NCBI GenBank assembly: GCA_041674285.1
Contig: JBAYVZ010000005.1
Location: 5,176 to 69,175 of the forward strand
DNA length: 64,000 bases
Direction of reading: 5' to 3'
Source: Minisyncoccota bacterium
GTDB lineage: Bacteria; Patescibacteriota; Minisyncoccia; Phycocordibacterales; UBA9973
The notes under the pieces are model-generated. The model was not told the origin of the DNA. It did not search any database and saw only the letters and a list, made by a program, of their open reading frames with translations. Shown piece by piece: positions 40,092-41,747 of this stretch (within the stretch, counting starts at the first letter, position 1; each line of letters opens with the position of its first letter). Position numbers and translations under genes: made by a program.

Positions 40092-41747
40092 ATGAAAAAG
40101 ATAATAGTAGCGATTTTATTTGTTTTACCAATGATAGTATCAACAGCCAAGATAGAGGCTGTTTCCCTAGTAAGTAACAGCTTGGAGGTAAAAGATAAAA
40201 AAGTAACCATGAAAGTAAACCTATCAGCAATATCTAATGCTGATAAAGAGATACTGACAGCAAAAGTCTTTTCTACCTTCGAAAACAACAAACAGATCGG
40301 AGTATTCACAAAAACTTTCACAAAAGAAATTAGCAACATGGGTACACCCCAAATGCTAGCCATAGACATGCCTGATTCAGCAAAAGATGGGAATTATACT
40401 TTTACTATTGATTCAAATGAAGGGGATTCAATACCAGCGACACCATTTGACTACAAAGCTCCAGTAGTAAATACTCCGAACACAACTCCGTGTATTGTAG
40501 ACAAGGCGAATTTTTACCCTTATGGCGAAACTGGTGATACTTTCTACAAAGAGGGTAGCACAAAAGTAAGTATCGTGATACAGACTGTTAACTGTGCAAA
40601 CAAAGATTTAAAATTAACCGTCAAGGAACTAGACAGGTGCCCAGCTAGTTCTATCCCAAATTTCAACTGTAACGACGCATTGAGTAGTTCAGGGCTGGAA
40701 AATAAAACAATAATAATGCCAGCTACCGAGTCAGTCACACTAAACTACATAGCAGGAGAAGAAAATTGTGAGACTCTAGGTTTAGCGGATGGATATGATT
40801 GTCTCTATTACTTTGAACTAGCCACTCCAGATGGGGAAAAGTGGTCGTCTATGGACCGCGCAGGGGGGAGAATATCGTATGAGTGTGATGGTATTTGCAA
40901 CAAAGACTGGGAACAAGCAGGACCCCAGGAAGACACAGTAGACCCGGGGGCAATAGACCCACGCATAGCAAATGATGAGTACAATCTCCTGGCTCCAATC
41001 GGTGAGATAAAATCGATAGATGACACAAAACAATTAGGAGACTACATTAATCTAATGGTGAAAATTTTTCTAGGCATATGTGGTGCATTGGCTGTGATAA
41101 TGATTGTCATATATGGAATACAGTGGATGGGTACAGATTCTGTATTTGGAAAGACAGAATCAAAGCAAAAGATAGGTGGAGCACTGATGGGACTAGTACT
41201 AGCACTAGGATCATGGATGCTACTAAATACTATAAACCCAGATCTACTAGGCGGAGAGCTCAATATCGGACAAGCAAATATAGAAGTAGAAGAAGACGCT
41301 ATGAGTTCAAACGATGCTCTGCCACCACTAGGTACGGCAGTAGCGAGGTGTCCAGAAGGTATATACCAAGTGCAGACAGCTGGTGGAGTATTCCCAGTAT
41401 GCAAAACAATGCAAGATAACTTAAAAAAGATGATAGACCTGGCATGGAGTCAGAATATTAAAATTACAGGTTTTGGATTTAGGTCAAAAACTAGACAAGA
41501 GGAATTGCGTGCACAAAATTGTGGAGCAGCAAATGTATACAAGCAAAATGCAAGATGTAAGCCAGACACAGCAATCCCGGGGACTTCAATGCATGAGAGC
41601 GGTCTTGCTTTTGACTTTAGATGCGAAGGTTCAAAGATAGCAACCAAAGACAACAAATGTTTCCTCTGGCTAAAAGCAAATGCAAGTAAATATAATCTTA
41701 AAAATCTATCTAGTGAACCTTGGCACTGGTCAACAACTGGACACTAA
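40092..41747 (+). CDS. fusion protein: secreted N-domain, T4SS-pilin-like two-TM module and M15 (VanY-like) peptidase
   Basis: Signal peptide. Two-TM module YNLLAPIGE...LGDYINLMVKIFLGICGALAVIMIVIYGIQWM...IGGALMGLVLALGSWMLLNTINPDL. C-terminal LAS/M15 motifs GTSMHESGLAFDF (SxHxxGxAxD) and EPWHW (ExxH). Confidence 0.7.
   Translation: MKKIIVAILFVLPMIVSTAKIEAVSLVSNSLEVKDKKVTMKVNLSAISNADKEILTAKVFSTFENNKQIGVFTKTFTKEISNMGTPQMLAIDMPDSAKDGNYTFTIDSNEGDSIPATPFDYKAPVVNTPNTTPCIVDKANFYPYGETGDTFYKEGSTKVSIVIQTVNCANKDLKLTVKELDRCPASSIPNFNCNDALSSSGLENKTIIMPATESVTLNYIAGEENCETLGLADGYDCLYYFELATPDGEKWSSMDRAGGRISYECDGICNKDWEQAGPQEDTVDPGAIDPRIANDEYNLLAPIGEIKSIDDTKQLGDYINLMVKIFLGICGALAVIMIVIYGIQWMGTDSVFGKTESKQKIGGALMGLVLALGSWMLLNTINPDLLGGELNIGQANIEVEEDAMSSNDALPPLGTAVARCPEGIYQVQTAGGVFPVCKTMQDNLKKMIDLAWSQNIKITGFGFRSKTRQEELRAQNCGAANVYKQNARCKPDTAIPGTSMHESGLAFDFRCEGSKIATKDNKCFLWLKANASKYNLKNLSSEPWHWSTTGH

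Follow-up and report, generated by a model that had tools for sequence, protein, structure and literature searches.

We analysed a 64,000-nt stretch of DNA (hereafter the window) from a Minisyncoccota bacterium (GenBank assembly GCA_041674285.1, contig JBAYVZ010000005.1, positions 5,176 to 69,175) and focused on a single gene, an ATG-initiated open reading frame (ORF) at positions 40092..41747 of the forward strand. Its product of 551 amino acids (aa) joins a module related to the pilins of type IV secretion systems (T4SSs) to a C-terminal peptidoglycan peptidase. A sequence-only reading of the window had described one such polypeptide, and the ORF listing returned exactly the same coordinates and length. 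The gene is one unbroken frame, the two other frames carrying 62 and 40 stops, no homopolymer occurs at its domain junctions, and its start codon lies 1 nt past the TAA of the upstream gene, as is typical of an operon junction. The identical protein is found in several public sources, including a 'Candidatus Paceibacterota' metagenome-assembled genome (MAG), under the NCBI name 'D-alanyl-D-alanine carboxypeptidase family protein', and databases have already attached both PF02557 and PF18895 to some members of the fusion family. All functional statements on the fusion protein given here are computational.

The pilin module consists of a β-hairpin (YNLLAPIGE, residues 297–309), a first transmembrane (TM) helix, a lysine-rich loop (GxxSVFGKTExK), a second TM helix and a following motif, LLNTINPDLLGG. 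Kyte-Doolittle hydropathy places the two hydrophobic helices at about residues 322–346 and 360–381 (peaks at 325–343 and 361–379) with the loop GTDSVFGKTESKQK between them, and the AlphaFold2 (AF2) model contains helices at 315–347 and 351–380. Against the T4SS_pilin profile PF18895, the full-length protein scores 21.9 bits (E=1.8e-4, 68 of 71 profile positions), below the gathering cut-off of 26.6, and the isolated 93-aa module scores 27.4 bits (E=3.7e-6, positions 2–70 of 71), above it. At E≤0.1, all 30 modules sampled from the family match PF18895 (best 1.4e-9) and 25 of the 30 match TrbC/VirB2 (PF04956). The module of the window protein would at best be a distant relative of the latter family, with 15.1 bits for the full protein and 20.3 bits (E=6.4e-4) for the module alone, both below the gathering threshold of 27.9. 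The NCBIfam model Mbov_0395, a 'pilin-like conjugal transfer protein', matches with E=1.8e-4. Residues Y297, L300, P302, Y318, G347, S350, F352, T380 and P383 are invariant, and a hidden Markov model of the family detects no second pilin module in the 64-kb window. The short, positively charged loop between two hydrophobic helices, seen by hydropathy and in the AF2 model, and the position near virB4, here and in about 66 of 80 related genomes, are those of a T4SS_pilin protein. The overall build is not. T4SS_pilin proteins are small, stand-alone proteins with the leader directly before the hairpin; this protein has 551 aa, about 270 aa of β-sandwich separate the signal peptide from the hairpin, and 160 aa follow it. 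The fusion protein is not a canonical stand-alone member of T4SS_pilin, though its module passes the Pfam threshold.

The C-terminal domain is a member of the VanY/M15B family by sequence, catalytic residues and fold. Pfam VanY (PF02557) matches residues 438–548 with 43.5 bits against a cut-off of 25 (E=3.4e-11), and a search of the Protein Data Bank (PDB) with the C-terminal 137 aa retrieved the VanY-type enzymes 6a6a, 5zhf and 5hnm at E ~1e-6 and LdcB/YodJ at E ~2e-3. The GxRS..Q, PGTSxHxxGLAxD and EPWH motifs align with those of solved VanY-type carboxypeptidases, so that the motifs singled out in the sequence-only reading, GTSMHESGLAFDF and EPWHW, coincide with the stretches that bind zinc and carry out catalysis in the solved structures of VanY and LdcB. 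The His-Asp-His zinc ligands, the catalytic Glu and the substrate-binding Arg (SxHxxGxAxD, ExxH) are all present. In a Foldseek comparison of the domain with the PDB, BaLdcB (4mph) ranks on top (E=1e-6) and VanXYc is also retrieved, the fold being of the LAS-type α/β class. In the 51 homologues that share this tail type, R464, Q469, S499, H501, D508, E542 and H545 are invariant, and the cysteine pairs 420/437, 477/489 and 511/523 are conserved in 50–51, as expected for an active, disulfide-stabilised extracellular enzyme. Homology, intact catalytic residues and fold together show that the domain is an enzyme. Compared with the VanY/LdcB enzymes (MEROPS M15B; 5hnm, 5zhf, 6a6a, 4mph, 4ox3), it has the same fold, the same Arg and the same SxHxxGxAxD and ExxH motifs, but it is only ~20% identical to them, has three conserved disulfides and is tethered to a pilin hairpin instead of a simple N-terminal anchor. 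Some VanY-domain proteins are L-Ala-D-Glu endopeptidases.

The AF2 model of the whole protein, built with 58 homologues, has a mean predicted local distance difference test score (pLDDT) of 80.9. It places two β-rich domains, the β-hairpin and the helical hairpin in that order, followed by a disordered linker (380–415, with pLDDT <50 over residues 380–400) and a very confident α/β C-domain (pLDDT >90). Foldseek matches of the N-terminal region in the PDB are tandem Ig/FN3-type modules of the surface adhesins Cpe0147, RbmA and Bap, and the second of the two domains (residues ~135–280) is common to about 24 of 120 listed homologues. Profile searches detected both modules of the fusion announced by the sequence-only reading, the T4SS-pilin-like two-TM module through PF18895 together with its two hydrophobic helices and the M15/VanY-like peptidase through PF02557 together with its LdcB/VanXY fold. 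Hydropathy likewise bears out the signal peptide, with a signal-like hydrophobic segment at residues 4–22. What had been described as a 'Cys-containing N-domain' does hold eight cysteines (residues 134–269), but it comprises two Ig-like β-sandwich domains that are themselves variable. With an exported N-terminus and a two-helix hairpin, the protein is predicted to adopt an N-out/C-out topology, in which the N-terminal region and the C-domain would both be extracytoplasmic. The earlier suggestion that wall remodelling would be placed on a pilin-like subunit appears reasonable.

We determined the conservation of this architecture at two levels. A search with the whole protein yielded 133 homologues, and the architecture was examined in the 120 listed; in all 120, exactly one pilin module is present, and at least 130 aa of tail come after it. 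A scan with the module only, taking one genome per species, yielded 180 relatives, of which the best 80, from 80 different assemblies, were used. By record titles these are mostly Paceibacteria, Nomurabacteria, Parcubacteria, Minisyncoccia and other Patescibacteria (including RAAC4_OD1_1), with a few records titled 'uncultured bacterium' or 'MAG: bacterium'. Many third-party annotation (TPA) records with a Paceibacteria-type locus are titled 'uncultured Candidatus Saccharibacteria bacterium', a label that is probably generic or mistaken and was not relied on. Every complete copy in the 80 genomes is fused, so that the fusion, whose retention in relatives the sequence-only reading had left to be checked, is kept in both sets. 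An apparent unfused pilin in one genome (L040) was rejected as the product of a masked run of N.

The end of virB4 lies ~1 kb upstream of the fusion gene in about 66 of the 80 genomes, the slot usually being two genes after virB4. Compared with the window, the 80 genomes give median identities of 88% for VirB4, 69% for the TraC-like protein, 58% for PrgI and 53% for the pilin module, and about 41% for the flanking 328- and 439-aa proteins. Only 12 of the genomes have a detectable N-domain, and 16 a detectable VanY tail. In its degree of conservation the hairpin is close to the VirB3-like core component; it behaves like a core part of the machine and not as a mere anchor. The fusion architecture is fixed in the clade, and the enzyme part is exchanged between strains.

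A wider search with the module only returned 11,379 representatives of 50%-identity clusters at E≤1e-3, 2,106 of them at E≤1e-10; the best 150 matches are nearly all proteins of 290–930 aa with an internal module. Eight proteins, P0121 (1382 aa), P0124 (966 aa), P0206, P0214, P0137, P0198, P0216 and P0193, contain 4–11 tandem pilin modules each. They may be genuine 'poly-pilin' proteins, or arrays of pilin genes run together by gene calling, as might happen with an alternative genetic code.

The tail after the module is exchangeable, and the peptidase noted in the sequence-only reading is just one of 12 or more interchangeable tails. Only 51 of the 120 listed homologues carry a VanY-type tail like that of the window protein (52 in a de novo clustering, which divides the tails into 13 families). 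Among the other 69 tails, Pfam identifies YkuD (13), NlpC/P60 (13), SLT (6), Amidase_2 (3), Peptidase_M15_4 (2), Amidase_5 (2), SLT_2 (1), SLT_3 (1) and VanX-type M15 (1). Among the 80 genomes, tails could be tabulated for 79, the remaining copy (L013) lacking a tail because its contig stops where the pilin module ends: VanY 16, YkuD 12, unk2 12, NlpC/P60 9, SLT 7, unk4 6, M15_4 3, SLT_2 3, unk11 (SLT-like) 3, Amidase_2 2, unk7 1 and unclassified 5. The same syntenic slot is occupied by NlpC/P60 (L001, L006), YkuD (L002, L003, L007), Amidase_2 (L004) or SLT (L005) tails. Tail type is almost uncorrelated with the tree of the pilin module: it requires 57 Fitch changes, compared with a shuffled mean of 63.9 and a possible minimum of 11, and different enzymes are found on modules that are 99–100% identical. 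Because the module is short, its tree is poorly resolved, and comparisons of locus pairs are the stronger evidence.

Two independent pairs of near-identical loci show the exchange of the cassette for unrelated wall enzymes. Loci L006 (NCBI GCA_964532365.1; NlpC/P60 tail) and L007 (Logan SRR23852798; YkuD tail) are ~100% identical in DNA over virB4, a 333-aa gene, the N-domain, the pilin module, jag and yidC; identity of the fusion genes is lost only over about 580 bp, beginning just past a '...LLNTINPELLGGGG-x-NIKQV-x-AEI' motif at about residue 256 and ending at the stop codon. In the second pair, L088 (VanY) and L089 (unk2), flanks of 94–100% identity enclose ~480 bp of unrelated sequence with the same borders. 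Identity ends 5–15 aa after the pilin module in both pairs, and these sharp borders indicate that the cassette coincides exactly with the enzyme domain. Obvious candidates for the homology arms of recombination are the conserved stretches on either side, namely the 3′ end of the pilin module and the downstream gene. Paralogy as the source of identical modules with different tails was rejected for the tested pairs, which occupy the same syntenic slot in different samples with ~100% identical flanks. Within virB4, L006 carries short clusters, each of 5–12 single-nucleotide polymorphisms, relative to L007 at 7417–7516 and 8117–8216 in otherwise 100% identical sequence, and divergence between the two loci is raised in the downstream PG_binding_1 gene (87–97%). 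Both observations suggest frequent short recombination tracts in these populations.

Further combinations occur within single genomes. Five genomes (L066, L071, L076, L081 and L086) contain two nearby fusion genes; in the four pairs that are fully classified the tails differ (unk4 with NlpC/P60, SLT with VanY, unk2 with SLT, and unk2 with an unclassified tail), and in the fifth genome a VanY tail alone is classified. In L048, VanY and YkuD domains follow each other on one pilin fusion, forming a 462-aa tail. Variation also extends to the N-terminal part. In an alignment of the window with L008, its closest species-level relative (flanks 90–99% identical), every part of the gene can be matched except the first β-sandwich (~40074–40443), and elsewhere the alignment is broken only by two short intergenic indels. 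L008 has ~180 extra residues at this first Ig-like domain, which forms a second variable cassette. The core of the protein is thus conserved, with turnover apparent at both of its extracellular ends.

About a quarter of the tails belong to four families (unk2, unk4, unk7 and unk8) that remained unmatched, by sequence or fold, in Pfam, PHROGs, NCBIfam and the PDB; hhalign found no match between them and the labelled tails, and a large homology search returned no candidates. Members are P0076 and alignment A4 for unk2, A5 for unk4, P0024 and P0113 for unk7, and P0062 and P0071 for unk8, with L076 and L081 as example loci. The family unk2 is as common as YkuD, being present in 12 of the 80 genomes, and its models reach pLDDT >90. 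Its invariant residues H309, H315, D323, E360, H363 and H365 form an H..H..D..E..HxH pattern that suggests a metallo-enzyme, and at the level of motifs unk2 and unk8 may be read as LAS-like (H..D..HxH). Family unk4 has the invariant motifs 'RTNNPGNIGNTDDGKT' and 'YLRIYSTGAR'. All four are possibly unrecognised families of wall enzymes.

Eleven tightly packed genes run in the same direction at 26786–43078 (Table 1); the fusion gene is number ten, and its product is the only wall enzyme encoded among them. A Pfam scan covered 31 ORFs of the window, including every ORF >400 aa, and neither the operon nor the other scanned ORFs gave a match to a coupling protein, a relaxase or another wall hydrolase. 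The 1025-aa polytopic protein and the window copy of the 439-aa protein have no Pfam match, and the 217-aa TraC-like protein has none at E≤0.01; orthologues of the 439-aa protein in L002, L005, L006, L007 and L088 carry PG_binding_1 (PF01471). In 74 of the 80 genomes a homologue of the 328-aa gene directly adjoins the fusion gene, and in about 73 a homologue of the 439-aa gene comes next after it, whichever tail is present. For the latter gene, the listed TTG start would overlap the fusion gene by 28 nt, and the ATG is therefore the likelier start.

Table 1 Parts of the fusion protein and genes of the surrounding operon, with positions in the window
Feature	Position	Strand	Basis
Signal peptide-like N-terminus (predicted), aa 1–23, MKKIIVAILFVLPMIVSTAKIEA	40092..40160	+	Hydropathy peak at aa 4–22
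β-sandwich domain 1 (variable), aa ~24–121	40161..40454	+	AF2 pLDDT ~80, all-β; Foldseek
β-rich Cys-containing domain 2, aa ~135–280	40494..40931	+	AF2 pLDDT ~90; 8 Cys at aa 134–269
T4SS_pilin (VirB2-like) module, aa 295–390	40974..41261	+	PF18895, TrbC, Mbov_0395, AF2 helices
Post-TM2 motif and flexible linker, aa 391–415	41262..41336	+	Low pLDDT; cassette boundary in relatives
M15B (VanY/LdcB-type) zinc peptidase, aa 416–551 and stop codon	41337..41747	+	PF02557, PDB, Foldseek
Three bitopic proteins	26786–31522		Hydropathy
1025-aa polytopic protein, probably VirB6-like	31613..34690	+	At least 6–8 hydrophobic segments; syntenic position
385-aa soluble protein	34822–35979		Hydropathy
PrgI/VirB3-like protein	35995..36408	+	PF12666 2.6e-9; two adjacent TM segments
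TraC-like 217-aa protein	36457..37110	+	Orthologues at the same syntenic position carry PF26593
VirB4-type ATPase	37233..39068	+	P-loop_TraG PF19044 6e-25, AAA_10, DUF87; median identity 88%, 66 genomes
328-aa secreted or bitopic protein	39104..40090	+	N-terminal TM or signal segment; adjoins fusion gene
Fusion gene	40092–41747	+	Pilin module and M15B peptidase
439-aa bitopic protein	41759..43078	+	From ATG 41759; listed from TTG 41720

Downstream of the operon lie jag, yidC and rnpA, followed by dnaA-dnaN, a gene for a class-A penicillin-binding protein (PBP1a) and tyrS. With these neighbours, the T4SS cluster is chromosomal and next to the replication origin, and the source organism makes peptidoglycan. 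The system is a chromosomal, oriC-proximal, relaxase-less T4SS of the Gram-positive type found in Patescibacteria, rather than a conjugation system. Patescibacteria T4SSs resembling MPF-FATA, located near dnaA/dnaN/rnpA/ksgA, with VirB2-like pilins and usually no relaxase, have been described (Quiñonero-Coronel et al., PMC12102498). Between the PBP1a gene and tyrS, the window has a DUF559 (endonuclease-like) ORF at 51045–51599 that is missing at that position in the syntenic L002 and L004 and is probably a small insertion. In relatives, yidD (~68 aa) lies between yidC and rnpA, where the window has 456 nt (44460–44915) without a long ORF, and virB4 starts 2–12 nt after the TraC-like gene, where the window has a spacer of 122 nt (37111–37232); both stretches coincide with indels relative to L008.

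Observed as a whole, the fusion is a catalytically intact enzyme of the M15B fold, joined by a flexible linker to a VirB2-family module, the operon encoding neither a second such module nor another wall enzyme. We propose, with moderate confidence, that it represents a pilin-tethered, VirB1-type wall-processing subunit of the chromosomal T4SS of Paceibacteria (Candidate Phyla Radiation, CPR). In this proposal, (i) the Sec signal peptide would export the N-terminus and the hairpin would insert N-out/C-out with its lysine-rich loop in the cytoplasm, as the topology suggests; (ii) the hairpin would dock at the VirB6 / VirB3-VirB4 assembly site in the manner of VirB2, consistent with synteny and conservation; (iii) the M15B peptidase, on a flexible tether of ~35 aa, would cleave stem-peptide bonds, presumably of the D-Ala-D-Ala or L-Lys/mDAP-D-Ala type, in whichever wall the machine crosses, and would supply a VirB1-type wall processing otherwise absent from the operon; and (iv) homologous recombination between the 3′ end of the pilin module and the downstream gene would swap the cassette for unrelated wall enzymes. 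For the last step (v), we lean towards the organism's own wall as the primary target, because the tether is short and because of the analogy to Gram-positive VirB1 proteins; the strain-level turnover makes a role at the host wall a serious alternative. The VirB1-type and host-directed models overlap in everything but the target.

T4SSs of the Gram-positive type depend on VirB1-type hydrolases that are tethered to the membrane, among them PrgK, TraG and CwlT (cited in PMC12102498). The fusion shares with PrgK (pCF10), TraG (pIP501), CwlT (ICEBs1) and TcpG (pCW3) that a wall enzyme is encoded in the T4SS operon, and by domain and topology predictions this enzyme would likewise be membrane-tethered and extracytoplasmic. 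VirB1-type hydrolases have a single N-terminal TM or lipid anchor without a pilin-like fusion, and they typically combine an SLT/muramidase with a CHAP or NlpC/P60 domain, whereas the window protein has the M15B domain only and the enzyme class varies between strains. A glycan-cleaving SLT/muramidase domain is thus missing from the window protein and present as the tail at the same slot in some relatives; genomes with two fusion genes (for example SLT and VanY) pair a glycosidase- with a peptidase-type activity, like the two-activity VirB1-type hydrolases. The fusion may work like a VirB1-type hydrolase with an anchor that would be unprecedented for that class.

Two described groups of Patescibacteria proteins come closest to its halves. 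The VirB2-like T4SS_pilin proteins, for example Southlakia epibionticum SEML1_0014-0019, have a hairpin of the same Pfam family and are likewise encoded in a chromosomal, relaxase-less, Gram-positive-type T4SS cluster near dnaA (PMC10633639, PMC12102498). These stand-alone pilins of ~125–185 aa often form arrays of 2–11 highly divergent paralogues, in contrast to the single, strongly conserved copy of the fusion, which embeds the hairpin between ~270 aa of Ig-like domains and a 135-aa enzyme and flanks it with an extra invariant β-hairpin motif (YxLLAPIG) and the LLNTINPDLLGG motif. The 1113-aa protein SEML1_0007 of the same species, encoded directly after virB4, ends in a Hedgehog/DD-peptidase (LAS) domain and is essential by transposon sequencing (Tn-seq), as are the small separate pilin genes (PMC10633639). 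As in the fusion, a peptidase of the LAS superfamily forms the end of a large exported protein near virB4 in a Patescibacteria T4SS; unlike in the fusion, no pilin domain is reported for SEML1_0007 and the pilins are separate genes.

Several points weigh against a VirB1-type subunit. The full-length protein stays under the PF18895 threshold, and a profile built from the module retrieved no solved pilin among PDB sequences, so that the tie to canonical VirB2 is one of Pfam-level similarity only. Globular domains of ~270 aa at the N-terminus and 135 aa at the C-terminus may call polymerisation or entry into the channel into question. The chemistry is a further point: VanY/LdcB and YkuD enzymes trim or re-crosslink stem peptides and cut no holes, for which reason 'remodelling' may be a better word than 'lysis' and a 'VirB1-like lysis' may be the wrong activity. 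The four unmatched tail groups resemble no known family, and action on peptidoglycan is therefore not established for all tails. Finally, housekeeping of the own wall gives no obvious reason for swaps of enzyme class between flanks that are ~100% identical.

This last point leads to a host-directed drill, a possible reading that we regard as tentative. Here, the pilin module would be pulled out of the membrane and assembled or extruded by the T4SS; the Ig-like adhesion domains and the enzyme, carried along a pilus-like conduit or at its tip, would act on the wall of the host cell, and the cassette type would be matched to host wall chemistry, diversifying like a host-range determinant or a polymorphic effector. 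Several observations agree with it: the nearly random distribution of tail type on the module tree with different enzymes on 99–100% identical modules, the two near-identical locus pairs that differ in the cassette only, and the first N-terminal domain as a further hot-spot of replacement. This pattern is typical of diversifying or frequency-dependent selection at host-interaction loci. In the F- and T-pilus structures, the two ends of VirB2 point outwards from the pilus. The repertoire of tails (amidase, NlpC/P60, SLT, L,D-transpeptidase-like, M15) mirrors antibacterial peptidoglycan effectors, known examples of which are Tae, Tge and Tlde1 of type VI secretion systems (T6SSs). In a Saccharibacterium, moreover, the T4SS is essential for epibiotic growth (PMC10633639). 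Equally tentative is the more specific form in which an extruded filament or stalk subunit, bearing the adhesin-like domain and the enzyme, bores through the host wall and the cassette, with its at least four unknown families, determines the host range.

Other observations stand against an effector-like, host-directed role. The organisation resembles polymorphic toxins (CdiA-CT, Rhs, LXG and peptidoglycan-targeting T6SS effectors) in its conserved N-terminal 'delivery' part and short demarcation motif, and the L006/L007 and L088/L089 pairs show the sharply bounded, strain-variable C-terminal domain of such toxins. No cognate immunity gene is present: the stop codon closes the cassette, and one and the same conserved gene begins no more than about 20 nt further on, irrespective of tail type. 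In 89 loci and the window, no orphan tail ORFs without a pilin module were found beyond two truncation or masking artefacts. Membership among the polymorphic toxins was rejected on these two grounds, the fusion sharing their cassette logic only. There is, furthermore, no nuclease, lipase or other non-wall toxin domain among the identifiable tails, and for a subunit that stays in the membrane the ~35-aa tether is too short to contact another cell.

That the fusion is a pro-protein appears unlikely. Cleavage at one or either side of the hairpin would free a small pilin together with a surface domain and/or a soluble enzyme, and the fusion would serve co-expression and co-export. VirB2-family propilins, which are processed at both ends (leader removal in TraA; C-terminal trimming and cyclisation in TrbC), provide a precedent, and invariant motifs flank the hairpin beside low-confidence linkers (Y-x-L-L-A-P before, L-N-T-I-N-P-D-L-L-G-G after). 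These motifs are equally explicable as structural, the model having a β-hairpin at 297–309, and no protease gene was identified in the operon.

Still less probable is an ordinary membrane-anchored LdcB/VanY-type carboxypeptidase for the own wall, with a pilin-like anchor and a T4SS neighbourhood that are incidental. The NCBI name as a carboxypeptidase family protein, LdcB and VanY as the closest solved relatives and the PBP1a gene nearby would fit such a housekeeping enzyme. Its slot two genes after virB4, however, is kept in about 66 of 80 genomes, and its anchor matches T4SS_pilin in 30 of 30 and TrbC in 25 of 30 sampled modules and is conserved like a core T4SS part; nor would a specific carboxypeptidase be expected to be interchangeable with SLT, amidase, NlpC/P60 and YkuD enzymes. 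A frameshift or mis-assembly joining adjacent pilin and peptidase genes, which the sequence-only reading had allowed for and which finds support only in the prior that unusual fusions are sometimes artefacts, was rejected as next to impossible, given a continuous ORF, an identical protein in several public sources and the same architecture in more than 100 independent contigs and in the 80 genomes.

Patescibacteria T4SSs, their VirB2-like pilins and their location near oriC are already published. A pilin-enzyme fusion or a cassette exchange was not described in the full-text literature searched, including PMC12102498 and PMC12857230, a search whose coverage was incomplete, so that absence from it is no proof. 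Most Patescibacteria with VirB2 lack a recognisable VirB1 (PMC12102498), and the fusion would fill this gap in the Paceibacteria clade, with wall processing physically tied to a pilin-like component. The function of the Patescibacteria T4SS has been called 'completely unknown' (PMC11665869), and the system is essential for the epibiotic lifestyle in one tested species (PMC10633639). Strain-level exchange of enzymes around a conserved pilin core is a signature seen at host-interaction loci, and it would offer a testable handle on how ultrasmall epibionts cross a cell wall, and whose. The unmatched tails are candidates for new families of peptidoglycan enzymes, and for surface display the pilin module might serve as a natural scaffold.

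Elsewhere in the window, two large ORFs at 16328–18013 and 19883–22882 (+), of 561 and 999 aa, are without Pfam match. A PilB/GspE-type ATPase of type II secretion systems and type IV pili (56696–58396, −) and a ComM-like protein of the Mg-chelatase family (13202–14773, +) are also encoded, both of which fit the type IV pili and competence genes known in CPR bacteria.

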